Part shown: piece by piece, positions 17,052 through 34,401 of the stretch
Layout of the letters: every line of letters begins with the position of its first letter
Numbering within the stretch: position 1 is the stretch's first letter
Source of the DNA: Candidatus Anaeroferrophillus wilburensis
Lineage (GTDB): Bacteria > Desulfobacterota > Anaeroferrophillalia > Anaeroferrophillales > Anaeroferrophillaceae
Assembly: GCA_016934315.1 (NCBI GenBank)
Contig: JAFGSY010000021.1
Location: 25,470 to 89,469, forward strand
Reading direction: 5' to 3'
DNA: 64,000 nucleotides
The notes under the pieces: generated by a model
What the model was told of the DNA's origin: nothing
Database searches by the model: none
Seen by the model: only the letters and a program-made list of their open reading frames with translations
Made by a program: the position numbers and the translations under genes

Positions 17052-18494
17052 ATGAGTCAAAAACGGATTCTGGTCGTTGATGATGAACATCTGATCCGCT
17101 GGTCGTTGTCGCAGATGCTGGCCGAGGGCGGGTATCTGGTGGAAACGGCTGAAGATGGCCATGAGGCTGACATCAAGCTGCGGCAGTTCAAACCCCACAT
17201 GGTGCTGCTGGATATCTGCCTGCCGGATGCCAATGGCATGGATCTGCTGAAAAAATTCAAAGCGGTTGATGAAGATCTGCTGATCATCATGATTACCGCC
17301 TACTCCCATGCTGATTCGGCCGTCAATGCATTGAAGCTGGGTGCCGAGGACTATATCGGCAAGCCGTTCAACCTGGAAAGTGTTCAGCACTGCATTGATC
17401 AGGTATTTGAAAAATGGCGTCTCAAAGAGGAGAATGCCTTCTACCGGCAGGTCCTGCAGAAAAAATTTGAAACAGACAATCTGGTTGGCAACTGTCCGAA
17501 AATGATCGAAGTGTTCAAAATGATCAAGGTTGCCGCCGATGCCGATGACAAGACGGTCCTGGTCCTCGGGCCAAGTGGTACCGGCAAGGAGCTGGTGGCC
17601 CGGGGCATCCATATGCACAGCAGCCGTGCTGAGCAGCCGTTTATCGAGGTCAACTGCGCAGCCATTCCTGAAACCCTGCTGGAAAATGAATTGTTCGGCC
17701 ATGAACGGGGTGCCTATACGGATGCTTCCCGGAAGCAGAAGGGGATGTTCGAGCTGGCCCAGCGGGGAACGGTGTTTCTTGATGAGATTGGCGATATGCC
17801 CATCGGCATGCAGGCAAAAATTCTGAAAGTGATAGAGGACAAGCGCTACCGTCGCCTGGGCGGTGAGGATGAGGTGGCCATTGATGCCCGGATTATTGCC
17901 GCCACCAACCAGAACCTGCAGAAACTGGTGAAAGAGGGGAAGTTCAGGGCCGACCTTTTTTATCGCCTGGATGTGATGACCATTTCGCTGCCGACCCTGC
18001 GTGAGCGCAAGATGGATATTCCCCAGCTTGTTGCCTATTTCATTGAACGGTTCAACGACGAGTATGGCCGCCAGGTGGAGGATGTTGATGCGCGGGCCAT
18101 GGACTACCTGATGAACTACAGCTGGCCCGGCAATGTCCGGGAGCTCAGGAATACCATTGAGCGGGCGATGATGTTGGAAGAAGGAAGAACCCTGGGGCTT
18201 GATCACCTCTGTGCCGAGGTGGTTCGGCACCATGAAGGCCGTGATGGGGAGGATTGTCGAACGCCGGCCGGCAGCCGGCGCTTCTCCCCGGATCAGCTGG
18301 AACTGCCGGCTGAAGGGATCTCGCTGGAAGAGGTGGAAAAACGGCTCATCCAGCTGGCTTTGGAACGCTGGGACGGCAACCAGACCAAGGCGGCTGAGTG
18401 CCTGCGCATGAGTCGGGATACCCTGCGCTACCGGATTAAAAAGTTCAACTTTGGTAAAGCTGAAAAACAGGGGCGGGATGATAATGGGAACTGA
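17052..18494 (+). CDS. sigma-54-dependent response regulator (NtrC family enhancer-binding protein)
   Basis: REC domain (ILVVDDEHLIR...DICLPD), AAA+ Walker A GPSGTGKE, a GAFTGA-position loop that reads GAYTDA, and a C-terminal Fis-type HTH (NQTKAAECLRMSRDTLRYRIKKF). Start at MSQKRILVV within ORF 16998..18494. Confidence 0.9.
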   Translation: MSQKRILVVDDEHLIRWSLSQMLAEGGYLVETAEDGHEADIKLRQFKPHMVLLDICLPDANGMDLLKKFKAVDEDLLIIMITAYSHADSAVNALKLGAEDYIGKPFNLESVQHCIDQVFEKWRLKEENAFYRQVLQKKFETDNLVGNCPKMIEVFKMIKVAADADDKTVLVLGPSGTGKELVARGIHMHSSRAEQPFIEVNCAAIPETLLENELFGHERGAYTDASRKQKGMFELAQRGTVFLDEIGDMPIGMQAKILKVIEDKRYRRLGGEDEVAIDARIIAATNQNLQKLVKEGKFRADLFYRLDVMTISLPTLRERKMDIPQLVAYFIERFNDEYGRQVEDVDARAMDYLMNYSWPGNVRELRNTIERAMMLEEGRTLGLDHLCAEVVRHHEGRDGEDCRTPAGSRRFSPDQLELPAEGISLEEVEKRLIQLALERWDGNQTKAAECLRMSRDTLRYRIKKFNFGKAEKQGRDDNGN

Positions 18495-19842
18495 ACAGCG
18501 TTGTGTTCTGGTGGTGCTGTTGGTGATTGTACTGGGCTGTATAGTGTCGGCAGGCGAGGGGTGGGCCGGTTGCATCACCACCGAATGTCACCAGACTCTG
18601 GGTCAAATGACCCTTGCCCATGCGCCGGTGGCCGAAGGGGAGTGTCTTGCCTGCCATCGACAGCAAAAATCCGAGCATCCGCTCAAGGGGGAAAAATCCT
18701 TCGGTTTGACCGCTGACGGTGCCGCCCTTTGTTTTTCCTGCCATGAACGGTTCCCGGCCGGCACAACGGCCCATGCGCCGGTGGCCGAGGGGAACTGCCT
18801 CAGCTGCCACAACCCCCACGGCGACCTGGGCGAAGCCCGCTTGGTGGTGAAGGATGGCCAGCAGGCATTGTGTTTCCAGTGTCATGATGCGGCCATGGTT
18901 GGAGAGCAGTTTGTCCATGGTCCCGCTGGGGCCGGGGCCTGCAGCCAGTGCCACAACCCCCATGGTGCGGATCAGCCGGCCTTGTTGCGCCAGGAATCGC
19001 GGCAGTTGTGTCTGTCCTGTCACCAGGAGCTGGCCGCCGGCGAGCGGCAGGCAGCCGTTCTCCATCAGCCGTTCGCCAAAAAGCCCTGCACCGCCTGCCA
19101 TGGCGCCCATGGTGCTGCCAACCCGGGTCTGCTGACCGAGAAGTATCCTGACTTGTGCTTTACCTGCCATCGGCAGGTTGGCAAAATCTATCAGCAGGCC
19201 AGGGTGAAGCACACCGCCCTCTACAAGGATGACCGCTGCGGCAACTGTCATGCGGCTCATTTCTCCAAGGTTTCCGGGCTGCTGCAGGAGCGTGAGCAGG
19301 ATCTCTGCCTGCGCTGCCACGGGGTGGACGATACGAAACGATCCAAACCTCTGAAAAATATCGCCAAGGAACTCCAGGATAAAAAGGTTCTTCATGGGCC
19401 CGTGGCGGACGGCCGCTGCGCCGCCTGTCACCAGCCCCATGGTTCCGATTATTTCCGCCTCTTAAGCGCCGCCTACCCGGAATCCTTTTATGCCCCCTAC
19501 CGGGACAGCGACTATGATTTCTGCCTCTCCTGCCATGAAAAAAACCTCCTCCGTTTTGCCGATACCACCATTTATACCAGCTTTCGTAATGGCAAACAGA
19601 ATCTCCACTACCTTCATGTGGCCAACCGCCGCAAAGGGCGGACCTGCCGTGCCTGCCACCAGGCCCATGCAAGCAATGGCGAGAAATTGATCAATCAGGA
19701 AGGGGCAGCTTTCGGTGACTGGCGGATTCCCCTGCGCTTGGCCCTGACCCCCACCGGCGGCAGCTGTGCCCCCGGCTGCCACAGCCGCAAGGCCTATGAC
19801 CGCCAGCAGCCGGTTGATTATGGCAGCAAAGAGGTCCAATAG
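18478..19842 (+). CDS. multiheme c-type cytochrome (13 CXXCH plus CX4CH and CX3CH)
   Basis: Signal-like N-terminus (RCVLVVLLVIVLGCIVSAGEGWA), 13 CXXCH motifs, CITTECH near the N-terminus and CAPGCH near the C-terminus. It overlaps the end of the EBP gene, so it is probably co-transcribed. The exact start is uncertain (18451-18484). Confidence 0.85.
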   Translation: MIMGTEQRCVLVVLLVIVLGCIVSAGEGWAGCITTECHQTLGQMTLAHAPVAEGECLACHRQQKSEHPLKGEKSFGLTADGAALCFSCHERFPAGTTAHAPVAEGNCLSCHNPHGDLGEARLVVKDGQQALCFQCHDAAMVGEQFVHGPAGAGACSQCHNPHGADQPALLRQESRQLCLSCHQELAAGERQAAVLHQPFAKKPCTACHGAHGAANPGLLTEKYPDLCFTCHRQVGKIYQQARVKHTALYKDDRCGNCHAAHFSKVSGLLQEREQDLCLRCHGVDDTKRSKPLKNIAKELQDKKVLHGPVADGRCAACHQPHGSDYFRLLSAAYPESFYAPYRDSDYDFCLSCHEKNLLRFADTTIYTSFRNGKQNLHYLHVANRRKGRTCRACHQAHASNGEKLINQEGAAFGDWRIPLRLALTPTGGSCAPGCHSRKAYDRQQPVDYGSKEVQ

Positions 19843-19980
19843 GATTATAGCAGTTCTTATCTTTGCCCCATTACCCAGCCAAGGTTAGCGTGGTTGTCTC
19901 TTTACTCTTTTCTCGCCGCTCGCTTCTCATGATCTCCCTGTATTTGATCAGCCCAGTCTCTATTTGGTAAAAGATGTGTT

Positions 19981-20029
19981 GGGTATTTACCCCAGTCCTT
20001 GATGGTGGTGTGGGGTAGATGCCCAATAG
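19981..20029. promoter_or_regulatory. candidate enhancer (UAS): GGGTATTTACCCC ... GATGCCCAATAG
   Basis: Second copy of the motif pair seen at 16581-16619, located 130-175 bp upstream of the sigma-54 promoter at 20157. Confidence 0.4.
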
Positions 20030-20156
20030 TCATATCGGTCTTTCTTGGTCTACGTCTTGGCAAATTCAGCCCCTCTCCTTCGTATTTTTGTGCATCTGTT
20101 TGAATTGTTAATAGTTTTTAATAATATTTGACAATAACAGTAGGCGTTGAGTGCTT

Positions 20157-20172
20157 TGGCACGTATTGTGCA
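20157..20172 (+). promoter_or_regulatory. sigma-54 (-24/-12) promoter for the tetraheme cytochrome gene
   Basis: TGGCAC-GTATT-GTGCA with GG-N10-GC spacing, in an AT-rich region about 150 nt upstream of the ATG at 20325. Confidence 0.65.
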
Positions 20173-20324
20173 AAGTTTCATTTTGTAAGAGCCAAGTGAC
20201 CCTCTTTTGGGGAAGGGAGTCGCAGCAGGAAAGAGGAATTTTTTTAAAGTTCGTAAGAAGAAGGCCAATGTAAGGGAGAAAAGGTTTAACTTTTTATAAT
20301 GGATGGAAGTAAAGGAGAGGAACA

Positions 20325-20984
20325 ATGAAGAAATTAATGATGGCGTTAAGCATTATGGCTTTGGTGCTGGTTGCGGTGCCGGCGTTTGCCCTTCCCGGTG
20401 ATGGAATAGTGGGTTCCCCGCACGATATGAATGTTGTTTCAAACCCTGATGGTCAGGGACGGGTGTGCGCTTTCTGTCATACGCCACACCATGCTTTGGA
20501 TGATGCAAATGCCGATTATCTGCCGCTGTGGTCCCATACGATGACTACACAGACTTTTACTCCCTATGACAGCGTTACTTTGGATGCTGCGGTTACTGAT
20601 GTTCTGGCGGGTCCTTCCCGCCTGTGCATGAGCTGCCACGACGGGGCCATTGCCGTTGATCAGCATTATGCCATTGTCGGTACGGACTACCGGACCGGTG
20701 ATTCCTGGGGCAATATCGCTGTTGGCCAAAATGGCGACCTGACCAACGACCATCCCATCGGTTTTGACTATACCGCAGTCGCCGCGGTGGACGATGAGAT
20801 CAGGCCTGAAACAACCGCGACTACCAATCCGGCCATTCCCACTATTGCCGACCTGCTGCTGGATGGTCAGATCATGACCTGCTCCTCCTGTCATGATGTC
20901 CATAATACTGATAATAATGATGTGGATTTCCTGATCAATCTGCAAGCCGGTTCCGCTATCTGTCTGACCTGCCATGATAAATAG
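20325..20984 (+). CDS. tetraheme c-type cytochrome (paired-CXXCH type)
   Basis: 219 aa. Signal peptide MKKLMMALSIMALVLVAVPAFA. Heme motifs CAFCHTPHH, CMSCHDG, CSSCHDVH and CLTCHDK. Confidence 0.9.
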   Translation: MKKLMMALSIMALVLVAVPAFALPGDGIVGSPHDMNVVSNPDGQGRVCAFCHTPHHALDDANADYLPLWSHTMTTQTFTPYDSVTLDAAVTDVLAGPSRLCMSCHDGAIAVDQHYAIVGTDYRTGDSWGNIAVGQNGDLTNDHPIGFDYTAVAAVDDEIRPETTATTNPAIPTIADLLLDGQIMTCSSCHDVHNTDNNDVDFLINLQAGSAICLTCHDK

Positions 20985-21027
20985 GGTTCAGGAGTTGTGA
21001 ACAGTGCCGGATGTACATGTTAATCAG

Positions 21028-21062
21028 GGCAGCCGCCGGTGAACCGGCGGCTGCCTTTTTTT
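21028..21062 (+). terminator. intrinsic terminator
   Basis: GGCAGCCGCCGG-TGAA-CCGGCGGCTGCC followed by a T7 run. Confidence 0.75.
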
Positions 21063-21135
21063 GACTTGCGCTGCCGGTGGTCAGGGTGCTATCGTCAATT
21101 AAAGCAATCTGAAAGGCGAAGATTGATTTGGAAGG

Positions 21136-22251
21136 GTGCGAGGCAGGATCATGCAGAAGGTAAAGCAGAAAACGGGCAGGATCGGGTGGACATTCCTTGT
21201 TATGCTGCTGGTTGTGGGTAGTTTGTGGGGTTGTGCCGGTCCCCAGGTGGTTGAGGACCACGGTCCGGTTTTCTTTCCGCCGCCGCCGAATCCGCCACGG
21301 CTGCAGTATCTTACCAGCATCTCCTCCTCCCGCGATGTTGACCAGAAGAAGAGCAGCGGCTTTGCCCTGCTGGCGGTGGGTGATGTCCAAGCTGATCAGG
21401 TGAAGCCGGTCGCTAAACCTTATGGTCTGGCGGTTTTTGGTACGAAGCTTTATGTTTGTGATACCGGGTCGGCGCGGGTCATCGTCATTGATTTTGCCGC
21501 CAAAACCTTCGAATATCTCAAAGGGGACTACAGCTTTGGCAAGCTGAAAAAGCCCATCAATCTGGCCGTCGACCGGGAAGGGACGCTTTATGTTGCCGAT
21601 ACGGCCCGTCAGGAGATCCTCGTCTATGGCCCCAGCGGTAATTTTTTGCGGACCATCGGTCGGGAACAGGAGTTGAGACCGGTTGATCTTGCTGTTGATG
21701 GTGACTTTCTTTATGTCACTGATGTCAAAAAGCATCAGGTGATGATTTATGACCGGTTGACCGGCACATTCCTCCAGGGAGTGGGGAACCATCCTGAAAC
21801 ACCTTCGGAAAGTTTGTCCATGCCTTTGGGGTTGGCCGTCGACAGCAAGGGCAGCCTGTTCCTCTCCAACATGGGGCACGGACGGATGATCAATCTTGAC
21901 CGCGACGGCCATTTTCTTGGCTCATTCGGTAAAATGGGAGATGGCTTTGGTCAGTTTGCCCGGCCCAAAGGGGTGGCTATCGATGACCGGGACCGCATCT
22001 ATGTGGTTGATGCCGGCCACCAGAATGTTCAGATTTTCAACCATGAAGGACGTTTGTTGATGTTCTTCGGTGATCCGGGATTGCCTCTTGGTTCCATGAA
22101 CCTGCCGGCCGGCATCGCCGTCACCAGTGAAATGATTGACTTTTTTCAGCCGTATGTTGATCCTTCATTTCGCGTTGAACAGCTGATTTTTGTCACCAAC
22201 CAGTTTGGTGACCACAAGATTACCGTTTATGCCCTTGGTGAACTGAAATAG
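21136..22251 (+). CDS. NHL-repeat six-bladed beta-propeller lipoprotein
   Basis: Lipobox LWGC. Repeated P.GLAVD..G.LYV.D / I.V.D motifs (KPYGLAVFGTKLYVCD, PINLAVDREGTLYVAD, PVDLAVDGDFLYVTD, PLGLAVDSKGSLFLSN, PKGVAIDDRDRIYVVD). Confidence 0.85.
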   Translation: MRGRIMQKVKQKTGRIGWTFLVMLLVVGSLWGCAGPQVVEDHGPVFFPPPPNPPRLQYLTSISSSRDVDQKKSSGFALLAVGDVQADQVKPVAKPYGLAVFGTKLYVCDTGSARVIVIDFAAKTFEYLKGDYSFGKLKKPINLAVDREGTLYVADTARQEILVYGPSGNFLRTIGREQELRPVDLAVDGDFLYVTDVKKHQVMIYDRLTGTFLQGVGNHPETPSESLSMPLGLAVDSKGSLFLSNMGHGRMINLDRDGHFLGSFGKMGDGFGQFARPKGVAIDDRDRIYVVDAGHQNVQIFNHEGRLLMFFGDPGLPLGSMNLPAGIAVTSEMIDFFQPYVDPSFRVEQLIFVTNQFGDHKITVYALGELK

Positions 22252-22267
22252 TACTTATGGTTAGCGA

Positions 22268-22303
22268 GGGGACAGCCGCAGTGCTGTCCCCTTTTGTTTT
22301 TTT
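22268..22303 (+). terminator. intrinsic terminator-like hairpin
   Basis: GGGGACAGC-CGCAGT-GCTGTCCCC followed by TTTTGTTTTTTT. Confidence 0.65.
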
Positions 22304-22317
22304 AACCCACATGTTCC

Positions 22318-22935
22318 GTGAATGGAATGGCTGGCATGCCTGGGAAACAATGGTCGATTCTGGTGCTGGGGAGCATCGCTCTGGTGTTGCTGCTTCTTGC
22401 TGGTTGCGATCCCACAACCCGCCATAAGGTTCTGACTACCATTTTTGACGGGGTTCCCAGTCCGCTGCCGCCAGAGCAGGTGCTGGAAGACTATTACCGG
22501 CAGCGGCTGGCGGCGGAGGCGGAGCAGGCTGCCCAGACAAATGCCGGTGTGGCAGTTGGTGGCCTGGCGATCGGTTCCCGTCATCGGCCCTATACGGAAA
22601 AGAAATGTACCGACTGCCATGATTTCAGCAGTGCCGTCGGCCTGGTTCGTCCTCCTCGTGAATTGTGTGTCATGTGCCACCGTGATTTTGTGCTTCAGGG
22701 AAAAGGGCTTCATGTTCATGGGCCGGTGGCCATCGGCGACTGTTCTGCCTGCCACCTGCCCCATACCTCTGTCCATGGCTCCCTGCTGGAGCAAGATAAA
22801 ACCGACATTTGCAGCAAGTGCCACCAGGAACAGCGGCTGGCGGCTCTTATGCATGATCGGGTCGTGACCCGTGGGATGGCCTGCACCGACTGCCATGATC
22901 CCCATTATGGCGCCGCCCGGTATTTCCTCAAGTAG
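22318..22935 (+). CDS. pentaheme c-type cytochrome lipoprotein
   Basis: 205 aa with lipobox LLAGC and 5 CXXCH motifs (CTDCH, CVMCH, CSACH, CSKCH, CTDCH). Confidence 0.85.
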   Translation: MNGMAGMPGKQWSILVLGSIALVLLLLAGCDPTTRHKVLTTIFDGVPSPLPPEQVLEDYYRQRLAAEAEQAAQTNAGVAVGGLAIGSRHRPYTEKKCTDCHDFSSAVGLVRPPRELCVMCHRDFVLQGKGLHVHGPVAIGDCSACHLPHTSVHGSLLEQDKTDICSKCHQEQRLAALMHDRVVTRGMACTDCHDPHYGAARYFLK

Positions 22936-22944
22936 GGCCCGGTA

Positions 22945-24933
22945 ATGTGGCGTCTGAGCGGGGTACTGATCGGTATTGTTCTCTGTGGACTGCTTGTTCA
23001 TGTCACCCCGGTTGCCGCCCGGCCAAGGGTATTGTTGATGGTTCGGGACTTCCATAATTGGCTCGATTTCTCCTATGAGTATGACGCCCGGGAAAGCACC
23101 GGTGGTCGAGGTGAGGACCTGCAGGAGCGGGATCACCGGCTGGAGGAAGTCTACCATTTCGATATGGCCTATGCCGTCTATCATCCCCGGCTGGTGAACG
23201 GCCGCCTGGGCATTGACCTCGGCCTGAATGAAAATTGGTATGACGGCGGCAACGGCGAGTCGGAGAGTGATGTGGGCACGCTGCTGGAATATGACCTGAC
23301 GGGAACCTTTTTTGACCGTCGGCCCTGTCCGATAAGTTTTTTTTCCCGGTCTGCAAGACGATCTATCCAGCGCCGTTTTGCCGGTAACTATGATTTGGAT
23401 ACGGTCAATCATGGTCTTTCCCTGACATGGCGCAATCAGCAGCTGCCCATCAGCCTGGGTTTTCGCCGCTACAGCAGTGAAACCGATGGCCTGGAGCTTG
23501 ACCGGCAGCAGACCAGCGACACGGTGACCGCCTCGGCTTCCCATTTTTATGGTGACCTGAGCCGTACGGAGTTCAGTTTATATCATGCTGACGATGAAAC
23601 GGATTATGGTGTTTTTGGCCGGACTGAGGATAATCGAACAACCGAGTACAATTTGACCAATGCCCTCACCTGGGGCGATCATAATCGGCCCAGTACTCTC
23701 TCCTCTGCTTATCTCTACCGCAATGAAAACGGAACCAACGATTCCTCATCGTCTGACTGGCGGGAGTTGCTGCGGCTGCAGCTGGGCAAGGCTTTGCGCT
23801 GGACCCTTGACTATGACCAGCGCCGGAATGAGTATGAGGATGTAGAACGGCGGGAGGAGACTGTTGGCAGCCGGTTGGAGCACCAGCTATATGACAGTCT
23901 TTCTACCCGCCTTTCCTATGAAGAGCGGACCCTTGAGATTGACGACGGCTCGGAAGATGAGTGGGAAGGCGGCATCGGCTTCTCCTATCAGAAACAACTG
24001 CCGGCGGCAAGCCACCTTGCCCTTGGCTATGATTTTACCTACGGCGAAACCGATCGCCGCGGGACCGCCGATGACCGGTTTGTCATCGGCGAACCACTGA
24101 TCATGGAGCTCCTGGGGCCTAATGACTTGGTTTTTGCCGATGTGGTTGCTGGCAGCATCACCGTGCTTTCCGCCGATCGCCTAGTTACCTATGTGGAGGG
24201 TGTTGATTACACGATTACCCAGATGGGCCGACAGACGGAACTGCTGCTTACCGCCGGCAGCCTCATCAGCCCAGGGGACCAGGTTGTGGTTGATTACCGC
24301 TATCGGGTTGATCCCGGCATCTCTTTTGCCACCACCACCAACCAGGCATTTGCTTCCTTGTCGCTTTTTTCCCGTCGTTACCGTCTCTATGCCAGCTTCT
24401 ACAATCTTGACCAGGAGCTGCTTTCAGCCAATTCTGGCAGCGGTGACCCCATGCTGCTCAGCGCGGTGACCAGTACTATGCTGGGAATGGAGGCTGTGAG
24501 GGGTTACCATACCTGTGGTTTGGAGATTGCCGATTATGACTCAACTACCGATGCCAGGCAGTATGTCCAGGGGGTCTGGCGCTATGCCCGCTATTTCCGG
24601 ATCCATTACCTGATGCTGATGGTCCGTGACCGTTATACCCGCTATGAGGCGATGGCTGAGGATGTTGGTGGTGATGACGGGGAAAATGTTCTGGACGCCG
24701 GTTTTGCCTACCGGCGGCGCCTGCCCTATGGCGCCATGGCCGGGTTCAGCGTTAATTATCTCAACCAGCGTGGCCGGGATAATGACCGTGACGAGCTGGA
24801 TATTGATTGTTCCTACAAGCTGCGGGTCGGCCGTTTGGAGCTGGAGCTGCAGGCCACCCAGCAGTGGGAGTGGCAGGCCAGCCGCCGCGACCGGGACGAC
24901 CGGGTAATGCTGACGTTCCGCCGCTATCTCTAA
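22945..24933 (+). CDS. putative outer-membrane beta-barrel protein (porin-like partner of the cytochromes)
   Basis: 662 aa with a signal peptide (VHVTPVAARP) and no Cys or heme motifs. It is rich in alternating aromatic/polar stretches and in Y/R/D/G (LDFSYEYDARES, GLSLTWRN, FSLYHADDE, GIGFSYQKQ, AGFAYRRRL, VMLTFRRYL). Its position between cytochrome genes mirrors porin-cytochrome clusters. The fold is not proven. Confidence 0.5.
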   Translation: MWRLSGVLIGIVLCGLLVHVTPVAARPRVLLMVRDFHNWLDFSYEYDARESTGGRGEDLQERDHRLEEVYHFDMAYAVYHPRLVNGRLGIDLGLNENWYDGGNGESESDVGTLLEYDLTGTFFDRRPCPISFFSRSARRSIQRRFAGNYDLDTVNHGLSLTWRNQQLPISLGFRRYSSETDGLELDRQQTSDTVTASASHFYGDLSRTEFSLYHADDETDYGVFGRTEDNRTTEYNLTNALTWGDHNRPSTLSSAYLYRNENGTNDSSSSDWRELLRLQLGKALRWTLDYDQRRNEYEDVERREETVGSRLEHQLYDSLSTRLSYEERTLEIDDGSEDEWEGGIGFSYQKQLPAASHLALGYDFTYGETDRRGTADDRFVIGEPLIMELLGPNDLVFADVVAGSITVLSADRLVTYVEGVDYTITQMGRQTELLLTAGSLISPGDQVVVDYRYRVDPGISFATTTNQAFASLSLFSRRYRLYASFYNLDQELLSANSGSGDPMLLSAVTSTMLGMEAVRGYHTCGLEIADYDSTTDARQYVQGVWRYARYFRIHYLMLMVRDRYTRYEAMAEDVGGDDGENVLDAGFAYRRRLPYGAMAGFSVNYLNQRGRDNDRDELDIDCSYKLRVGRLELELQATQQWEWQASRRDRDDRVMLTFRRYL

Positions 24934-24960
24934 GGGCTTTGTAAACAGTCCATGTAAGAA

Positions 24961-25090
24961 GCTGTCAGGTTTCAGGTTTGTGGTCATTCTCGCCTGCCAT
25001 CCCTGGCCGGCTCCGAGGTGTCCGCCGCGAATCACCATCCGGGTGATTCGTCCGGCGGCCAAAACCGCTTAAAACCTGAAACCTGACAGC
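24961..25090 (+). repeat. intergenic palindromic element, copy 1 (130 nt)
   Basis: The outer 19-bp perfect stem GCTGTCAGGTTTCAGGTTT / AAACCTGAAACCTGACAGC encloses the conserved core ...TCATTCTCGCCTGCCATCCCTGGCCGGCTCCGAGGTGTCCGCCGCGAATCACCATCCGGGTGATTCGTCCGGCGGCCAAAACCGCT. Confidence 0.9.
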
Positions 25091-25159
25091 GTATTTCCCC
25101 CGGCTCATGTGCCATAGGTTTATGTCAAGAAAAGCGGAAAAATTGACGAAGGGATAGCT

Positions 25160-25729
25160 ATGATGGCCGATATTGAACCCACCTATAGACGTCGTTTTAT
25201 CCTCAAAATCTGTACTTGCTTTCTGGTGACCGTTGCTGCCGTCAGTTTTGGCCTCTACGGTTATCTTGATCGGCCATTTGCCGGCGGTTATCTGGCTGCC
25301 ATTTCCACTCTCGACCAGCTGCAGCATGATATTCTTCTCGGTGTTGTGGTGTCCATTGCCGTTCAGCTGCTGGTGTTTGCCGTGCTGGTGTTTGCCATCT
25401 CTCTTTTCTGGACCCATAAAATTGCCGGTCCTCTCTATCGCCTGAAAAAAACCTTTTGCCGTATTGGTGTCGGAGACTTTTCTCCCATGGCGGGGCTGCG
25501 CCGCGGTGATCAGCTCCAGGAGGTGCCGTCCCAGTTCAATGCCGGCCTGGCGGTCTATGGGGAGACCATGGCCCGGACCAGCCGGGAACTGCAGGCCCTG
25601 CTGGACGAGCTTGCGACCATGGAACGAGATGTCCCTACCGCCCGGATGGTCGAGCGGGAGCGGCTGTCGGGGGTTGATGCCCGTATCCAGGCACTTATAC
25701 TCGAACAGGAACGGCTGCTGCATGCGTAA
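25160..25729 (+). CDS. small 2-TM membrane protein with a HAMP-like linker (paralog of 26582..27172)
   Basis: 189 aa. Two hydrophobic segments, then WTHKIAGPLYRLKKTFCRIGVGDFSPMAGLRRGDQLQEV (HAMP-like) and a short coiled-coil tail. Confidence 0.6.
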   Translation: MMADIEPTYRRRFILKICTCFLVTVAAVSFGLYGYLDRPFAGGYLAAISTLDQLQHDILLGVVVSIAVQLLVFAVLVFAISLFWTHKIAGPLYRLKKTFCRIGVGDFSPMAGLRRGDQLQEVPSQFNAGLAVYGETMARTSRELQALLDELATMERDVPTARMVERERLSGVDARIQALILEQERLLHA

Positions 25730-26585
25730 AACTCTTGGCCTGATAGTTATGTTGCTGGTGGTTTCGTTGTTTCTTTGCCAGCTGGGATCAGAAAATACCA
25801 ATCCTCACTTGGGGGAGGTGGCCTGCGATGAATGTCACCTGGGTGTCCCGACGGCCGGCGATGCCGGCAGCAAGCTGTTTGTTGCCGATATCGAGACCCT
25901 CTGCCTCCGCTGCCACCGCGATATTACCCTCGCCATGTCTCATCCCGTGGCCCTCAAGCCCACGTTTTCCCTGCCTGTCGATATGCCTCTTGACTGGAAA
26001 GGGGAACTGACGTGCTCCACCTGCCATTACATGCATGAGCATGATGACCAGCCGTACCATGACCAGGCTGTTTTTCTCCGACGCAATTCGGTCGGCCAGG
26101 CGTTCTGTCAGGAGTGCCACCAGCAGGGCTTCATGATGAATCGGACCCTCGGTCACAGCCTGGCCAAAAGTGATGCCCATTACACGCCCTATGGCAGCAG
26201 TGCCGCCGCCGACAGTTTCGGTGGAACTGATGCATCCCCTCTGCTGGATGAGTCGTCATCGGCCTGCCTCACCTGCCACGATGGTTCCATAGCCCGTGAT
26301 GAAGGGACAACGGAGATGAGTGCCGGGGCAATCTCCCTGGGAGCAGGAATCTGGCGTCATGACGGTGATTACGGCCGCAACAGCCATCCCTTGGGGGTCA
26401 GGTATGGTGATGCCCGACGCCGGCGCAGCGGCTACCGTGATGCCGCCATGCTGCCCAGCGTCATCCGGTTGCCGGGGGGGAAGGTTGAATGTGTTTCCTG
26501 CCATAATCCTTACTCTACCAATGATTCACTGCTGGTTATTGACAATCGCGGGAGTCGGTTATGTCTGACATGCCATCTCAAATGA
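25722..26585 (+). CDS. heptaheme c-type cytochrome
   Basis: Start at MRKTLGLIVMLLVVSLFLCQ, overlapping the upstream stop codon. There are 7 CXXCH motifs. The C-terminal part (CLTCHDGSIA...SHPLGVRY...CVSCHNPY...CLTCHLK) resembles the 20325 tetraheme module. Confidence 0.85.
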   Translation: MRKTLGLIVMLLVVSLFLCQLGSENTNPHLGEVACDECHLGVPTAGDAGSKLFVADIETLCLRCHRDITLAMSHPVALKPTFSLPVDMPLDWKGELTCSTCHYMHEHDDQPYHDQAVFLRRNSVGQAFCQECHQQGFMMNRTLGHSLAKSDAHYTPYGSSAAADSFGGTDASPLLDESSSACLTCHDGSIARDEGTTEMSAGAISLGAGIWRHDGDYGRNSHPLGVRYGDARRRRSGYRDAAMLPSVIRLPGGKVECVSCHNPYSTNDSLLVIDNRGSRLCLTCHLK

Positions 26586-27172
26586 AGAAAAAGTCCTATG
26601 TCCGGCGAACCTACCTGGTTGACCGGACTTTCCAGGTTCGTTTTTCGCTGCTTTTTTTCGGTGGCGTAATGGTGCTCGGCCTGCTGGCCGGGGTGGCCAC
26701 CTATGTGCCGGCCAGAAATATGCTTGTCCGCCATCTCTATTCACCCCATATTTCCTTTGCCGCCTCCGGCGAGATTCTCGCCAGGCTGTTTATCTGGCTG
26801 AATGTCGGTTTTGCCTTACCGTTGATTGTCTTTTCTCTGATGCTGGTTACCTGGTATGTCCGGCGGACGGCCGGTTCTCTGCAAAGGCTGCGGGCCAGCC
26901 TGGCAGTCTTGGCCGCCGGCCGGATTCCCCCAGCGCTTTTTTTTCGCCGTCGTGACCCTTTAAACGCTGTTGCGGCGGACCTCAACCTGATGGTCGTGAG
27001 CTTTAGGGACCGCCAGCAGATCATTATCCAACACCTGCAGGCTGCCAGAGCGTTGTTGAAGATTGAGGATGAGCGTGAAGGTTTGTCTCAGCCTTTACCA
27101 GTCTTGGAACAGGTGCGGCGGGAGGTTCAGGCAGCCCTGGAGGTCATTCCCGAGAGGGAGGCTCTGCTATGA
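26582..27172 (+). CDS. small 2-TM membrane protein with a HAMP-like linker (paralog of 25160..25729)
   Basis: ATGA overlap with the cytochrome stop. The N-terminus is KKKSYVRRTYLVDRTFQVRFSLLFFGGVMVLGLL, a second TM follows, then WYVRRTAGSLQRLRASLAVLAAGRIP. Confidence 0.6.
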   Translation: MKKKSYVRRTYLVDRTFQVRFSLLFFGGVMVLGLLAGVATYVPARNMLVRHLYSPHISFAASGEILARLFIWLNVGFALPLIVFSLMLVTWYVRRTAGSLQRLRASLAVLAAGRIPPALFFRRRDPLNAVAADLNLMVVSFRDRQQIIIQHLQAARALLKIEDEREGLSQPLPVLEQVRREVQAALEVIPEREALL

Positions 27173-28215
27173 AGGGGGGATGTGGCGAACAGTGGCGATG
27201 CATCCTTTTTCTGATGTTGTTTATGCTGGCCTCCTGTTCAACCGGAACCCTGCAGGAACAAGGTGGCCTCGAGCCCGTGCCGGTGTGGCCGGCACCGCCT
27301 GCAGCAGCTCGGATTGTCTGGGTAGAGGAGGTCAGCCGGTTTCAGGATATTTGTGGCCAGCCAGGCTTCTGGCAGCGGCTCAAAGAGGTCCTGGTGGGCA
27401 AAATAAGCACCGGCATGGTTAAACCCTATGGCATCTATATAGACGAGGAACAACGTCTGTACGTGGTTGATTCAGGCAGCGGTTTCATCCACCTGATGGA
27501 TCCTAATGCCGGCTGCTACCGGGCCATCCCCGGGCCGGATGACGGCTTGGTGCTGCCGTCGCCCATCGGTGTTGCCGGTGATGATCAGGGGCAGGTGTTT
27601 ATCACCGATTCCAAGTTGGGGAAGGTGTACCGCTACCTTCCCGATGATGGTTCCCTGCAGCCGCTGACCAGGATGACCCTCAAGCGGCCCGCCGGGATTG
27701 CCTACCACCGGCTCAACCGGCTGCTCTATGTGGCTGAAGCGGGTGTACACCAGGTGGTGGCCTTTGACCGTCAGGGGATCGAACAGTTTCGTTTTGGCAG
27801 CCATGGCAAGAGGCCGGGAGAATTTAACTTCCCTACTGCTGTCTGTGTCGATCAGCGGGGCCAGGTACTGGTGACGGACGCCCTTAATGCCCGGGTGCAG
27901 ATATTTACCCCTGAAGGCCAGTTTGTCGCTGCTTTCGGGGAGCCCGGTGATACTTCCGGGACCTTTGCCAAACCGAAAGGGGTGGCGGTCGACAGCGAGG
28001 GGCATGTCTACGTCTGTGATGCCCTGTTTGATGCCGTCCAGATCTTTGACCAGGAGGGCAGGCTGTTGCTAACCTTCGGCCAGAGTGGCTCTGCGCCCGG
28101 AGAGTTCTGGATGCCCAGCGGTATCAGTATTGACAGCCGCGATTATATCTATGTTGCTGATTCCTATAATCGCCGGGTCCAGGTATTCAGATATGTGAGG
28201 GAAGGCGAAAGGTGA
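27169..28215 (+). CDS. NHL-repeat beta-propeller lipoprotein (second copy)
   Basis: Lipobox LASC. NHL blades include PYGIYIDEEQRLYVVD, PIGVAGDDQGQVFITD, PAGIAYHRLNRLLYVAE, PTAVCVDQRGQVLVTD, PKGVAVDSEGHVYVCD and PSGISIDSRDYIYVAD. Confidence 0.85.
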   Translation: MKGGCGEQWRCILFLMLFMLASCSTGTLQEQGGLEPVPVWPAPPAAARIVWVEEVSRFQDICGQPGFWQRLKEVLVGKISTGMVKPYGIYIDEEQRLYVVDSGSGFIHLMDPNAGCYRAIPGPDDGLVLPSPIGVAGDDQGQVFITDSKLGKVYRYLPDDGSLQPLTRMTLKRPAGIAYHRLNRLLYVAEAGVHQVVAFDRQGIEQFRFGSHGKRPGEFNFPTAVCVDQRGQVLVTDALNARVQIFTPEGQFVAAFGEPGDTSGTFAKPKGVAVDSEGHVYVCDALFDAVQIFDQEGRLLLTFGQSGSAPGEFWMPSGISIDSRDYIYVADSYNRRVQVFRYVREGER

Positions 28216-28265
28216 AAGGCGAAAGGTTGAAGGATCAAGGCTCAAGGATAAGAGAGAAAGGTTGA
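28203..28265 (+). repeat. heptad-periodic array (9 x 7 nt, AGG-phased)
   Basis: AGGCGAA AGGTGAA AGGCGAA AGGTTGA AGGATCA AGGCTCA AGGATAA GAGAGAA AGGTTGA. It spans the NHL gene stop and the spacer before the next cytochrome gene. Confidence 0.8.
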
Positions 28266-28325
28266 TGGCTGGCGGAAAGGGACTGTCGGGTGAGTCGGAG
28301 ACTGCGGGATAAAGGTAGGAAGCAG

Positions 28326-29972
28326 ATGAAAAAGAATGCTGAAGGTTGCAGGATGGTGTTGGCGGTTGTCCTGGTGATGCTGCTGGGTATCTCGACGGGA
28401 TGGGCGGCCGGGGTTGCCGATACCCGGCACAATTTGTCGGTGAGTGGCCCCGGCGAGATTGTAGCCACCGCTGAGGTGCGGATCTGTATCTTCTGCCATA
28501 CGCCCCACCATGCCAGTCCCACCCAGCCGTTGTGGAGCCGGGAGCTGAGCGGAGCTTCCTACGACCTTTATGCCTCGACCACCATCAAGGCCCAGCCGGG
28601 GCAGCCCACCGGCGCCTCCCGTCTCTGTCTCAGCTGTCATGACGGCACCGTGGCCCTCGGGCTGCTCCACGATGCCGCAGTACCGATCACCATGGCCGGC
28701 GGCATCACGACCCTGCCGTCGTCCCGATCCACCAACTTGCAGACCGATCTTGCCGATGATCATCCCATCTCCTTTGCCTACACCGCTGCTCTGGCTGCTG
28801 TTAATGGTGAACTGCGGGATCCCGCAACCCTGCCGGCGGCCATTAAATTGGAGGAGGGCAGCCAGCTCCAGTGCACCGCCTGCCACAACCCCCATAAGGA
28901 TCCATACGGCAAGTTCCTGGTGATGGACAACGCCGGCGCGGCGCTCTGCGTCGCCTGCCATGATAAAACCGGCTGGGCATCAAGCACCCACGCCACGGCT
29001 TCGGGGGTTGCCGGCCAGGGCTGCAATGCCTGCCATGTACCCCATAATGCCGGCGGCCGGGAGCGGCTGTTGAAAAGTCAGCAGGAAGAGCAGAACTGTT
29101 TTCCCTGCCATGACACCAGCGGCAGCGAGATCGATGTGCTGACCGATTTTACCAAGTTGCACCATCACCCGGTGGAGGCAACAGCCGGTGAGCATGATCC
29201 CCTGGAGGACCCGCTCACTGCCCTCTATCACGTGGAGTGCAGCGACTGTCACAATCCCCACCGGCTCAACGACACGGCGGCGACGCCGCCTTTAGTGACC
29301 GGCCAACTGGCTGGCGTCAAGGGGGTTACCATTGCCGGTCTGGTGGTGGCCGAATCCCAGTACCAGTATGAGATCTGCTTCCGCTGCCACGCCGACAACT
29401 CCTTTTCCCCGGTGGTCGCCATTCCCCGGCAGATCCAGGAAGTCAACGAGCGGCTCCGCTTTGACCCGGCCAATCCCTCCTACCATCCGGTGGCCGCCAT
29501 CGGCAAACAGCCCTCGGTTCCCAGCCTGAGGCCGGAGTATTCGTCTGCCAGCATGATCTACTGCAGCGACTGTCATAACAGCGACACCGGAAGCATGGTC
29601 GGTGGTGCCGGGGCTGATGGCGTCCATGGCTCCAGCAATCCCCGGCTGCTGGTGGCCCGCTATGAGCAGGATGCCTACCCGCTGAGCTACGCGGAAAGCA
29701 ATTATGCCCTCTGTTTCCGCTGCCATGATCCCAATGTGCTCATGGACCGTTTCCGGTCCAACTTTCCCAGTCACCGTAGTCATGTGATTGCCAAGCAGAC
29801 TCCCTGCTCCGTCTGTCACGATCCCCATGGGGTGCCGCTGGTGGGGGGCGCTACCACCACCGGCAACGCCCATCTGATCAACTATGATAGCCGCTTTGTT
29901 ACCGGCACCTATAATTCGGTGACCCGCAGCTGCACGGTAAACTGTCATATGATGAACCCCCGCAGTTATTAA
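28326..29972 (+). CDS. multiheme c-type cytochrome (11 CXXCH plus a C-terminal CX3CH)
   Basis: Start at MKKNAEGCRMVLAVVLVMLLGISTGWA within ORF 28290..29972. The first 210 aa or so are homologous to the 20325 tetraheme protein (CIFCHTPHH, CLSCHDG, DHPISFAY, CTACHNPH, CVACHDK). The C-terminus is SCTVNCH. Confidence 0.85.
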   Translation: MKKNAEGCRMVLAVVLVMLLGISTGWAAGVADTRHNLSVSGPGEIVATAEVRICIFCHTPHHASPTQPLWSRELSGASYDLYASTTIKAQPGQPTGASRLCLSCHDGTVALGLLHDAAVPITMAGGITTLPSSRSTNLQTDLADDHPISFAYTAALAAVNGELRDPATLPAAIKLEEGSQLQCTACHNPHKDPYGKFLVMDNAGAALCVACHDKTGWASSTHATASGVAGQGCNACHVPHNAGGRERLLKSQQEEQNCFPCHDTSGSEIDVLTDFTKLHHHPVEATAGEHDPLEDPLTALYHVECSDCHNPHRLNDTAATPPLVTGQLAGVKGVTIAGLVVAESQYQYEICFRCHADNSFSPVVAIPRQIQEVNERLRFDPANPSYHPVAAIGKQPSVPSLRPEYSSASMIYCSDCHNSDTGSMVGGAGADGVHGSSNPRLLVARYEQDAYPLSYAESNYALCFRCHDPNVLMDRFRSNFPSHRSHVIAKQTPCSVCHDPHGVPLVGGATTTGNAHLINYDSRFVTGTYNSVTRSCTVNCHMMNPRSY

Positions 29973-30042
29973 GCCCCTACCTCTCGCCGGCATTTGTCCG
30001 TCTTCCCTGCTGGAGCAGATCCCTTGTGCCAGGGTGATTCGT

Positions 30043-30079
30043 AAAAAACCGCCGCTGTTTTGCCGCCGGCGGTTTTTTT
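30043..30079 (+). terminator. intrinsic terminator
   Basis: AAAAAACCGCCG ... CGGCGGTTTTTTT hairpin directly after the 11-heme cytochrome gene. Confidence 0.75.
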
Positions 30080-30271
30080 ATGGCCGCGGCGGGTCAAATC
30101 CCCCTTAAGGGGAAGGGGATGGGTTATTTAGCCTGTGCTCTATCCTGTCATCATGAGTTATATCCCTCTCTCCACTCACTTGCCTTCTTAGTTCCTTGCA
30201 TATCTCATTAAAATTATTGATTTTATTAGATCCTGAAAAAAATTAAAGAAAGTTAAGAATATTCTGTTCTA

Positions 30272-30287
30272 CGGTATACATTGTGCA
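30272..30287 (+). promoter_or_regulatory. possible sigma-54 promoter for the giant cytochrome gene (weak -24 box)
   Basis: CGGTAT-ACATT-GTGCA has correct GG-N10-GC spacing. The -12 half ATTGTGCA is identical to that of the 20157 promoter. It lies about 220 nt upstream of the ATG at 30509 in AT-rich DNA. Confidence 0.35.
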
Positions 30288-30508
30288 TTTTAACTCAGTC
30301 ACAGTTGCAAGGCCTTCTTCAGGTTGTAACAGTAATCTGCCCTTAACGTCATCCCCATACCCCAATATGAGTGATGATCAAAAGCGGCTGGCTTTATGGA
30401 GGTGAACTGCAAAAAAAAGAGATTACCGAACAGATGATATGCAAGCAACCAGTCTGTGGCGAATAGTGATGCCGCCGGCAGACAACGGAAAACTTTTGGA
30501 GGGGAACA

Positions 30509-33500
30509 ATGAAAAAAATTCATCTAACCACCGCTTTGCTGGCGGCAGTGATTCTGCTGTTTGGTATGGTGGGCAGTTCCATGGCAATCCATCCCGACAT
30601 TGATTTGTTGGATGCCGACGGAAATCCCATTTCCTCGGCCGGTGGGCTGCAGCCGGCATTCAGTTATAAAACAACCTGTGGCGCCTGCCACAACGGGGTC
30701 AACCTTGACGGCGAGGGCAATGTCCTGCTGAGCTACGATGACATCGAACAGCACAGCCTGCATGCCCAATTGTCTGCCAACCAGTTCATGGGTTGGAACA
30801 TCTGGAATCCCGATTCAGCCAATTCCTACAAAAAAGGCCCGGCTCCGAAAGGCAAGAACTGGGTCCAGAGTCCCGGCCATTTCGGCAAGTGGTGACCGCC
30901 GTCAGCGCGCCAGTTGGCGCATCTTTTTGCTGACGCTTCAAATCCCACCTACGATGCCGCGAGCGCCAAATATAATGACGGCGGCATGAATCTAAACTTT
31001 ACTCCTTATAATTTTGGCAGCGAGGCTGCTTTTAAACAGCAGGTTGACCTGGCCATTGCCGGCATGATGCAGGATTGCGCCGAGTGCCATGTGGGCGGCG
31101 GGGCGATGGAATATGTTCCGGCCCCGACGGCCAACGCCAATGACCGGGTTTCTCTGCGTGACATCTATGCCACGCCGCTCAGCTATACCAAAGATTCCGG
31201 CGGCAATACAGTTCCTTTCGGGCCGTTTGACAGCAATATGTTTACCGCCTTCAACAAGTTCATCGATACTTTCGATGTTGACGGCGACGGTGATAAGCTG
31301 GAAGTGCTGGATGCCGACTGGCCGAATACCGGAGTCATCGAAATGGACTGTTTCCTCTGCCACCTCCAGGGCTACAAGTACCAGGACCGGGTTGCCGCCC
31401 AGCGGGCAGCCAAGTTCGACGTCTCCCGGGTGGTCGGCAGCGGTGTCGGGACGGCCAACACGCTTGCCTGGGATCCGAATTCCACCGTGCCGCCTGAAGG
31501 CTATGGTACCGACGTGACCTATAACAACTATGTTCAGGATAATGGTTCCGGCAACCTTAAATTCCACTATGCCATCAACTATTACCTGAAGGAATTTCCC
31601 CCCAGTGACAACTGTGCCTTCTGCCACTTCGGCAAACCCGCCGTCGACTGGAAGAAGCGCGGCGACAACTGGGCCAATGCCACCCAGACCTATGAGGTCC
31701 ATAAGGCTGTTGGCTGCATAGGCTGTCACCAGGCTAAAGTTGGCACGGTGATCGGTACTGACAACGTTGCCGACGGCAACCTCGGTCAGTGCGATCCGGC
31801 CAAGGGGATTGCCCCCTACAGCAGTGCCTGGAATAATACCGACGGTACCGTCAAGACCTGCGAAGACTGCCATCTCAATTACGGTTATGATGAAGATCTC
31901 GGCACCTACAGCCCCGCATACGGCGCTCCCAACCCAACCGGTGCCCATCAGGCTGCCGGGTTGACGGCGGTGCTCTGTCAAACCGGTGAAAATGGGGTGG
32001 CCAACGCCAGCCACCTGGATATTATCGACTGTGCCGCCTGTCACGTTCGCAAAATTGCCGATCCGGCCACCAACCCCTGGAACACCGGCGGTGCCATCGT
32101 TGATGCCACTGGCGCTGACATCGAAGGCCGCATGGCTGACCATGAAAACGAATATGTCCATCGGGAGATGTATGACCCCGACGACGATGCCACCAACATC
32201 ACCTTTTCCTGGCTGCAGGGCAAAATTATTGCCACCAGCGTCCTGAACACCGTCTACTGGCGCGACAAGAATGATGTCAACCACGACGTCAACGCTGATG
32301 GTCGCGGGGGCGGCATGGACACACCGCTGACCACCCATGTCCTGGCGGTCAATGAAGTCAACGGTTGGACAAACCTGGCCGAAGACAACCATGGTCATAT
32401 TACTAGTACGGAGATTGGTGCCCGGATCACTGCGCTGGAGAATGGACTGCCGGCTCTAACCGGCAAACCTGGTACGCCGGTCATCAAAATCTCAACCATG
32501 GCCGTGCCTTTCAAGGTCAATCACAACATCGCTCCGAAGCAGTACGCCATCGGCAAGCAGTGTACCGACTGCCATGGCAATACTGCTGATCTTGACAGCG
32601 ATGGCGACGGCATCAGCAACGGCGGCATCTTCAACGGCGCCTACACAATGCAGGGCGTCAATATGGATATGACCAATCTTGCTACTCAGGTAACGCCACT
32701 GACTAAGGCGAACTCCTTTGAGGATGTGACAGACTTCCATCCCAACACCAAGAACAAGTTGGCTACCCGGACCATTCCCATCAAAAACTGGAGTGGCCTG
32801 ACCACCATGCGTGCTGTGGACCGCAGTGAAACCCTGTGGGAAAACACCTTCAGGGCCCGTAATACCACTTGGCATGCCAACGGTGATCCCATCGTCGGCG
32901 GCGCCATCCCCTTCCCGGCTCCGGGGTCAACCGGTGCCAACACCAAGGGTCTGTGGCTCAAGGTCGAAGTTGACACCAATCTGGACGGCGTTACGGATGT
33001 GACCCGGACCCGGATGGTCAATTCCTTTGTTGACAGTACGGCTGGTATGTCTGGTCTGTTGAATGACCTTGGCTCCGGTGCTACTGATGGAACAGACTTC
33101 ACCGATGACTTCGAATTTGTGATTTCCGACAATGGTGCCGGCGGTCTGCAGATTGAAGCCAAGGCCGGCAATCAGATCCGTCTGAATCCGGCAACCACCT
33201 CCGGAGCCACGGGGCTCAATTTGGTGGGTTATGTCTGGACGCCGACCCCGATTATCGGTGTAGACGGCAATCCATATCCTGGTCGAACCGAGTGGGTTGC
33301 CTATCTGAATTCCATTAATCCAAACGATGTCGGTATCGGGCTTGATCCGATTGCCGATATCGCCACCATCGATGGTCAGGATCCTGATCTGGTGCTGCCT
33401 TACATTGAGATCATTAAGGGTAGTACGGTAACCTTGGTTGCCGACGATCCCGCTGCCGCCGGGGTTTTCAGGTATACCTGGACCTTCAGTGACAGCACTG

Positions 33501-33910
33501 CGGTTGGTGAGGCACAGTCGGTCCAGTATACCTTCAATACTACCGGCCTGGTTACCGTTTTCCTGACGGTCATCGACGAAGAGAACAAACTTTCCCAGCA
33601 GTCGGTCAAGGTCAATGTCATTGTGCCGCCGCCGGTAACGGGTCTTACCTATGATGCAACGGCCGGCGATCCGAATGTCACCTTGCATCTGGTCGGTCTG
33701 CCAACCCATGATAGACTTTATTTCTACTATGGTGACGGCCTCAGGCAGCAGATCTATGACTCTGCAGATTCCTTTGACTTGGTTCACACCTATCGTTTCA
33801 AAAGCAAGTATCTTACGGGAGGGAACTACAGCTACAATACCTCGGTACGGATCTACAATGGCAGCACCCTGGTTGAAACGCTGCAGGAAAACGTGCTGAT
33901 CCCTCAATGA
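30509..33910 (+). CDS. giant secreted octaheme c-type cytochrome with a PKD-like C-terminal domain; reading frame interrupted by one in-frame TGA (30893-30895), so either a candidate selenoprotein or a pseudogene
   Basis: ORFs 30509..30895 (signal peptide plus CGACH) and 30914..33910 (7 CXXCH, no signal peptide, no ATG/RBS) are in the same frame, separated only by a TGA. A hairpin follows the TGA. The C-terminal segment FRYTWTFSD...YTFNTTGLVTVFLTVIDEEN is PKD-like. Confidence 0.6.
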
Positions 33911-34152: not shown

Positions 34153-34181
34153 TTGCTGACTATGTAACGAGAATATGTCAA

Positions 34182-34210
34182 AGCCGTGGATGATCACCAC
34201 GGCTTTTTTT
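34182..34210 (+). terminator. trp attenuator terminator
   Basis: AGCCGTGG-ATGATCA-CCACGGCT followed by T7. Upstream ATCCAC (34141-34146) can instead pair with GTGGAT (34186-34191), giving an antiterminator option. Confidence 0.7.
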
Positions 34211-34236
34211 GTGCTAAGTGACGGTCATTGTATGAA

Positions 34237-34368: not shown

Positions 34369-34401
34369 TTACAATCCCGATACCACCCAGGTGAGGTATT
34401 C

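Follow-up and report, generated by a model that had tools for sequence, protein, structure and literature searches.

Among the small repeats of bacteria, the Correia element of Neisseria has a 26-bp terminal inverted repeat (TIR) and a TA duplication. The BIMEs of E. coli and the BOX elements of Streptococcus pneumoniae are modular mosaics of small palindromic modules, and the ERIC (IRU) sequences of enterobacteria are imperfect palindromes of about 126-130 nt that lie in transcribed intergenic regions in either orientation. REPINs are hairpin-forming mobile DNA in which compensatory stem changes have been documented, and this precedent makes compensation within a stem compatible with mobile DNA (PMC3116915).

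In this study, four copies of a hairpin-forming repeat from Candidatus Anaeroferrophillus wilburensis were analyzed, together with their relatives elsewhere, in the window, which is the whole stretch of 64,000 nucleotides under analysis. The best explanation, given a probability of roughly 0.6, is an undescribed family of small non-coding hairpin-forming mobile repeats of Desulfobulbia-type Thermodesulfobacteriota, which is MITE-like, has a BIME-like mosaic organization and maintains its foldback at the DNA level. The membership of the window repeats in the repeat family is certain, and they are most likely selfish mobile DNA rather than a dedicated functional RNA. A literature search found no description of this repeat family. 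What is new is the family, a set of small palindromic repeats between genes of Desulfobulbia-like bacteria, while the kind itself, mobile repeats, is known; for these poorly studied bacteria of marine sediments and vents, the analysis yields a well-delimited repeat family with a consensus and a covariance model.

Copies in the window

The copies and their hairpins, H1 and H2, were located as follows.

24961-25090, + strand: copy 1, full; left arm 24961-24979, core 24980-25071, right arm 25072-25090
24992-25011, + strand: hairpin H1 of copy 1, GCCTGCC / GGCCGGC, with one mismatch
25028-25050, + strand: hairpin H2 of copy 1, CGAATCACC-ATCCG-GGTGATTCG, lengthened by CCGCCG/CGGCGG
34237-34368, + strand: copy 2, full; the perfect stem reaches 34235-34255 / 34350-34370; 121.9 bits (covariance model)
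34269-34288, + strand: hairpin H1 of copy 2, GCCGGCC-AACCAT-GGCCGGC
34305-34327, + strand: hairpin H2 of copy 2, from the H2 sequence pattern and the fold
45299-45424, + strand: copy 3, full; the stem reaches 45294-45316 / 45407-45429 with two G·T pairs; 135 bits
45328-45347, + strand: hairpin H1 of copy 3, GCCGGCC-ATTCAT-GGCCGGC
45364-45386, + strand: hairpin H2 of copy 3, from the H2 sequence pattern and the fold
46162-46230, + strand: copy 4, partial, 5'-truncated; 56.5 bits, model positions 30-115

An earlier note on this DNA had described three full copies and one truncated copy, all intergenic and in one orientation; the sequences were present at these coordinates, and all four lay on the + strand between ORFs. 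With the covariance model R1, copy 1 scored 131.5 bits over 24957-25095. The 25-nt H2 pattern occurred four times in the window against 0.00 expected from 100 shuffles, and copies 1, 2 and 3 were the three strongest inverted repeats of the 64 kb. Neither a fifth copy (covariance model search) nor core-less arms were found in the window.

A near-invariant core of about 90 nt had been proposed, and the cores of the window copies were indeed near-identical. The outer stem was copy-specific yet complementary, as had been claimed, with 19/19 bp in copy 1 and 21/21 bp in copy 2, while the stem of copy 3 comprised 18 bp with one G·U pair, or 23 bp with two G·U pairs when extended. The 7-bp hairpin H1 had been ascribed to copies 2 and 3 and was found there; it was also present, with one mismatch, in copy 1, which the earlier account had left out. 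Folding of the + strand of the full copies gave -76 to -79 kcal/mol (z = -9.7 to -11 against dinucleotide shuffles), and both strands folded into a long closing stem round a branched core. The ends of the window copies read GCTGTCA…/…TGACAGC or CAGCCAGG…/…CCTGGCTG, and the stem terminus (A)AGCTGTCA(A)GG was common to copies 1 and 2 only. By eye, the arm of copy 3 bore a distant resemblance to those of copies 1 and 2, and the window arms may be diverged homologues rather than unrelated sequences. Copy 4 began in the 3' half of H1 and continued through H2 and the tail without either arm. The variants TTAGGCGGCC and CCGCTTGG, specific to copy 3 among the full copies, recurred in copy 4, which suggests a local duplication or conversion. 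Copies 3 and 4 also form direct repeats on either side of a DUF3786 gene (45460-46131) and are a substrate for its deletion.

The copies occupied short spacers of co-directional genes, 9-11 kb apart, among housekeeping operons such as trp. Copy 2 filled the spacer between an intrinsic terminator (34180-34206) and the start of trpE at 34402. The neighbours were mutually unrelated, including a multihaem cytochrome/NHL cluster, the trp operon leader, ChaN-PDZ, DUF3786 and an aldolase. Since copies sit in operon spacers (the multihaem cytochrome cluster, the trp leader, DUF3786), they may affect transcript processing or promote rearrangements.

Several other features of the window were recorded. 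Copy 1 lies inside a region of repeated gene modules (18451-33910) encoding DmsE/GSU2203-like multihaem cytochromes, NHL-repeat proteins and large unannotated proteins; these modules look like duplicated extracellular electron-transfer conduits. The trp operon that follows copy 2 (34402-40449) included identified trpE, trpD, trpC, trpF, trpB and trpA genes, the scan having covered the operon apart from the stretch between trpE and trpD where trpG is expected. Rfam models identified a full-length bacterial class A RNase P RNA at 62494-62888 (+ strand, 319.7 bits) and a cspA thermoregulator 5'UTR match at 7998-8314 (+ strand, 79.6 bits against a gathering threshold of 78), and a perfect 19-bp palindrome at 8404-8442 is probably a terminator. 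Ahead of the RNase P RNA gene, a weak match (61849-62074) was rejected as a family member.

Relatives, composites and mosaic structure

Relatives were collected with H2-centred patterns in one scan of GTDB species genomes and one of JGI metagenomes, and their genomes were sampled around the copies (~650 kb of loci, given here as L numbers). The 102 loci were reduced to 92 distinct copies from three MAGs (CAYZIS01 'Thermodesulfobacteriota', DQWO01 HyVt-111 and JAOZRP01) and about 14 metagenomes, and only six of the 92 overlapped a crude ORF call. The shared unit consisted, in order, of the left arm, (C)CGCTCATTCTC, H1, the linker C(T)TCCGAGGYG, H2 (CGAATCACC-N5-GGTGATTCG, lengthened by CCGCCG/CGGCGG), the tail CCAAAACCGCT and the right arm, so that arms of about 19-23 bp enclosed some 90 nt of core. 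Conservation was also strong in unpaired linkers, among them GCTCATTCTC and GAGGCG. In most relatives the arms read GGATGTTCCGGCATGGCTC / GAGCCAAGCCCGAACATCC and kept a mismatch at two pairs (C·C and A·A), and window-like arms (CTGTCAGGG…) were found in L015 and L086.

Many relatives carried two further modules outside the arms, ending CTCAACTTTCTGA(G/C)TTG…TCAGAAAGTTGAG, which formed the TIR of a composite of ~210 bp. Among 72 evaluable copies, 20 had these outer TIRs on both sides, 28 on one side and 24 on neither. Moreover, the composites were flanked by AT-rich direct repeats of ~7 bp, such as TATTTTA, TTATTGT, TTACAGT, AAGTTAA and ATTAAAC. These target-site duplications (TSDs) matched at no fewer than six of seven positions in 13 of 22 composites, against a mean of 1.2 and a maximum of 5.2 in 500 permutations of the flanks. 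Together, TIRs and TSDs are a signature of insertion by a transposase. The earlier note had named conserved TIRs, TSDs and a cognate transposase as the marks of an ordinary MITE; the first two were found in the relatives and the third was not.

The window copies themselves had no outer TIR modules beside them according to a module-only HMM and 28 alignments of flanks with modules (all p>0.05 against shuffles). Decayed outer modules A or B were considered for copies 1 and 3, where a weak nhmmer extension reached into module A, and were rejected because neither the module-only HMM nor the shuffle tests were significant. The absence of a TSD noted earlier for the window copies was upheld, the observed values equalling the control at 4, 5, 7 and 9 nt; the other TIR-less copies gave the same result at the same lengths. 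No clean empty site was recovered among the loci.

The family was also strongly mosaic. Nested palindromic modules comprised CTGCCTGTCGGCAGACACGGC, tandem GCCGTGCCTGTC and GGGGTGCGCTAAAGCAATGTCCCC, the first two sitting between the core and the right arm, and one module, CCTGTGGGGTGCGCTAAAGCAATGTCCCC, was placed between H1 and H2. The inner unit occurred in either orientation relative to the outer modules (L017, L007), and a core-less hairpin formed by the arms was found at L045:8590-8740. Derivatives in L055, L101 and L023 resembled deletions between two copies of a nested module, L049 and L043 carried internal deletions, and truncated copies of both the 5' and the 3' kind were present. The notion that the core is a separately mobile unit inserting into hairpin loops was rejected, since the window has no core-less arms and the sole core-less hairpin (L045) is no clean empty site; a retro-element reading of the 5' truncations was likewise rejected, since 3'-truncated copies also exist.

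Additional small units were observed in the relatives, the first two of those below being absent from the window. A separate palindromic module of ~21 nt, CTGCCTGTCGGC(A/G)GACACGGC, occurred with tandem GCCGTGCCTGTC in L007, L014, L055, L101, L019 and L021 at varying positions (inside outer module A, or after the core), and the two behave like another tiny mobile or slippage-prone unit. The small hairpin module GGGG(T/A)GCGCTAAAGCAAT(G/A)TCCCC was found at L010:600-640, in L055 and in the right flank of L067; it lay inside the core between H1 and H2, or reverse-complemented outside an element. At L019:5977-6290 (= L100), outer module A contained an insertion of ~290 nt flanked by the direct repeat ACTTGCGCT, which is a nested insertion of yet another element. 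Furthermore, an acyl-CoA dehydrogenase-EtfA-EtfB operon recurred near elements in L015, L049, L098 and L099. The L015 element lay between etfB and etfA, and L099 had copies on both sides of the operon; because their orientations differ, these are probably independent insertions.

Conservation was highest in the centre of the repeat. Core identity was 86-93% in all comparisons, and remained 80-91% after removal of the 26 positions that were fixed by the search patterns and to which part of the core conservation is due. The arms were 39-83% identical, with low values of 39-58% where window-type arms were compared with those of the main type. The window from 46.3 to 62.4 kb (46362-62432) was syntenic with L029 377-12257 of the metagenome contig Ga0307991_1000311, with proteins 55-84% identical, so that the two genomes are related but well diverged. 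Within the syntenic block, L029 has an element at 9762-9942 and the window has none at that place. At such divergence, neutral intergenic DNA should be unalignable, so the core identity of ~90% requires an explanation: either subfamilies spread horizontally in recent times, or modules were exchanged, or the core is under purifying selection. Module exchange was amply evident in the family.

No source of mobility was identified in the DNA that was searched. As had been reported earlier, a scan of about 48 window proteins revealed no transposase; the ~650 kb of loci yielded no cognate one, and no transposase family recurred near the copies. A candidate autonomous insertion sequence (IS) in L043, with two TIR matches 1.47 kb apart, was discarded because the second match falls inside ftsH. 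BLAST of copy 2 against a plasmid collection and of the L016 composite against a phage collection returned nothing, nor did a scan of viral contigs. Tyrosine-recombinase genes (Phage_integrase + SAM_4) were seen at L036:7333-8187, adjoining an element about 50 nt from the composite end, and at L030:257-1171. The L030 gene has an element fragment at the edge of its contig as a neighbour, about 70-160 nt off, and the catalogued L030 copy is 2.2 kb distant. Mutual identity among the four recombinases of that cluster was only 27-38% and the other two lay more than 3 kb from elements, so that the proximity is probably a coincidence.

Under the preferred reading of mobile DNA, a transposase acting in trans would insert the composites in double-stranded form, and a parental IS with a DDE transposase would be bounded by CTCAACTTTCTGAGTTG. 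After insertion, composites would be remodelled by inversion and deletion and would acquire further small palindromic modules. The window copies would represent a subfamily without the outer ends and the duplications, either as relics or as products of another route of spread. The complementarity of the arms, H1 and H2 would be kept at the DNA level, through selection for the foldback in propagating lineages or through quasi-palindrome template switching that copies one arm onto the other. Any effects on neighbouring genes, for example where read-through transcripts form a stable hairpin, would be incidental.

Covariation and alternative readings

For the analysis of covariation, 53 full copies were aligned and a hand-drawn structure (P0, P1a, H1 and P2/H2) was imposed, in which 97.4% of the cells pair. 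The claim of a covarying stem was borne out, since double changes occurred in 20 pairs, where column shuffles gave 6.2±1.9 (none of 500 reached the observed value) and slid controls 8-10. Covarying pairs made up 16 of 17 in P0 and four of seven in H1, which occurred as GCCGGCC/GGCCGGC, GCTGCACA/TGTGCAGC, GCGGCACA/TGTGCCGC and GCCGCACA/TGTGCGGC. The H2 stem was fixed by the search pattern, and its variants come from unconstrained finds of the covariance model: two G-C to A-T double changes at L014:3896-4031, and a symmetric stem shorter by one pair, CGAATCAC-ATCGT-GTGATTCG, in five copies. The hairpin tips were of two types. Type I read CC-GTCCAT-GG in H1 and CC-ATCCA-GG in H2, and type II read CACATCGTGTG in both; an H2 loop xTCGT was present in 10 of the 12 copies with H1 of type II and in 17 of the 64 with H1 of type I. 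This association could reflect lineage, conversion between both hairpins or one protein that recognizes both.

The earlier note had taken this covariation as the signature of a folded functional RNA and not of a MITE. That inference was not sustained, since the composites of the relatives hold core and arms within TIRs and ~7-bp TSDs. It is also opposed by a random orientation and by the lack of an excess of G·U over A·C. Relative to the flanking ORFs, 19 copies were opposite/opposite, 14 same/same (12 fully intergenic and two with an ORF call overlapping the element), 12 same/opposite and 11 opposite/same. For local GC skew, comparison of the element strand with the G-rich strand gave 35 to 30. 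G·U-type and A·C-type stem mismatches were comparable (roughly 13 to 21 cells in a hand tally), so that neither strand is favoured. Given the random orientation in relatives, the same-strand arrangement of the four window copies is likely to be chance. Strong compensatory covariation can thus arise in mobile foldback DNA and is no proof of a functional RNA, a point that matters for the automated discovery of non-coding RNAs.

Against the mobile reading must be counted the window copies without TIR modules or TSD, the presence of TIRs at both ends in only 20 of 72 copies, the missing transposase and clean empty site, and a core that is ~90% identical where syntenic proteins are 55-84% identical. 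It is accordingly conceivable, though fairly unlikely, that the two-hairpin core of ~90 nt is a selectively maintained structured module, either an RNA or a single-stranded DNA recognized by a dedicated protein, which is closed by any available stem and carried by several mobile vehicles. If so, the covariation would reflect function and not only the biology of mobile DNA, and the core would be a new structured nucleic-acid module.

An unlikely reading is that the repeat is a single-stranded foldback mobilized by an HUH/Y1 enzyme (RAYT or IS200/IS605-like), analogous to REPIN or PATE, with H1 and H2 as the recognized hairpins. The outer stem with two side-by-side hairpins resembles the REPIN 'clover' (PMC3116915), window-type and other TIR-less copies have no TSD, and compensatory changes would be expected if mobility needs the hairpin. 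The tips of H1 and H2 are alike and change together, although this association may reflect lineage only. However, insertion of the IS200/IS605 type into the lagging-strand template would give an orientation bias, and none was seen with respect to GC skew or genes. Furthermore, the arms are not palindromic REPs, conservation is reversed in comparison with REPINs (a conserved centre and variable ends), and no Y1 transposase was present among the proteins scanned in the window and in the loci around copies.

About equally unlikely is the reading that core and stem are a selected structured RNA, such as a cis-acting element of mRNA processing or stability, a small ribozyme or a protein-binding RNA, domesticated or hitch-hiking in mobile vehicles. 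In its favour, three helices covary strongly, the folds are predicted to be very stable and the unpaired linkers (GCTCATTCTC, GAGGCG) are highly conserved. In addition, the core is kept across the diverged genomes while the arms are replaced, and the window copies, lying between co-directional genes, would be transcribed. These points are outweighed by a gene-relative orientation that is random in the 92 copies, by the absence of a G·U over A·C asymmetry on both strands, by unrelated neighbouring genes, by the TIRs and TSDs of the relatives and by the many truncated or rearranged copies. Rfam also provided no match, whether the gathering threshold or relaxed E-values were applied. In line with the earlier statement that the repeat fits no known family, nothing in the window corresponding to it reached the gathering threshold. 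The best hit to copy 2 at E up to 10 was 'Bacillus-plasmid', an unrelated family that matched the outer stem with 20 bits, below its gathering threshold of 31, and a composite gave no match at E up to 1. The covariance models of hammerhead, twister, HDV-like, pistol, hatchet and all other Rfam 15 families gave no match. A coding reading was rejected directly from the sequence, since a short reverse-strand ORF loses its frame between copies through a CTTCC/CTCC indel.

A host-maintained DNA site, that is a cruciform or a nucleoid- or recombination-protein site such as an attC-like tyrosine-recombinase site, is very improbable: the structure is equally conserved on both strands, the two halves of the 9-bp H2 inverted repeat stand 5 nt apart, and tyrosine-recombinase genes lie beside the L036 element and near the L030 contig-edge fragment, but the window-copy ends have no attC R''/R' core sites (RYYYAAC / GTTRRRY), the copies stand 9-11 kb apart in housekeeping operons and form no cassette arrays, orientation is random, the shortened H2 variant alters half-site spacing by trimming both half-stems symmetrically while keeping the hairpin, and the recombinases share only 27-38% identity, two of the four being more than 3 kb away.

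Comparison with known repeat systems

The described systems resemble the mobile repeat family proposed here to differing degrees. Unlike integron attC sites, the window copies have no R'' (RYYYAAC) or R' (GTTRRRY) sites at their ends and no one-orientation cassette arrays, and unlike the IS200/IS605-derived PATE, the family has no strand bias (35 to 30 against the G-rich strand, 14 to 19 against gene direction). With REPINs it has in common that it is hairpin-forming mobile DNA with frequent compensatory stem changes (PMC3116915), that its TIR-less copies are without TSD and that a two-hairpin 'clover' is available as an alternative fold. However, REPINs have conserved ends and a variable spacer, whereas this family has a conserved centre (86-93%) and variable arms (39-83%) that are not self-palindromic; moreover, unlike in REP-RAYT systems, no RAYT was found among the proteins scanned in the window and around the copies.

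ERIC/IRU sequences share with the family their size, the imperfect palindrome, the transcribed intergenic setting and the occurrence in either orientation, but they show no sequence resemblance by inspection, belong to a different phylum and lack a two-hairpin core closed by a copy-specific stem. As in MITEs, for example the Correia element (CREE) of Neisseria, the repeats are small, non-coding, multi-copy and intergenic, form a long hairpin and lie in either orientation, and relatives of the window repeats have conserved TIRs and TSDs. They differ from MITEs in that the window copies lack conserved ends and a TSD, the most conserved part of the family is its centre and no parental IS was identified, and from the Correia element in that the TSDs of the family are about 7 bp and not TA. 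As in BIME and BOX elements, the number and order of palindromic modules vary round a conserved unit; the sequences and the hosts are unrelated, and in contrast to those mosaics some composites of this family carry clear TIRs and TSDs.
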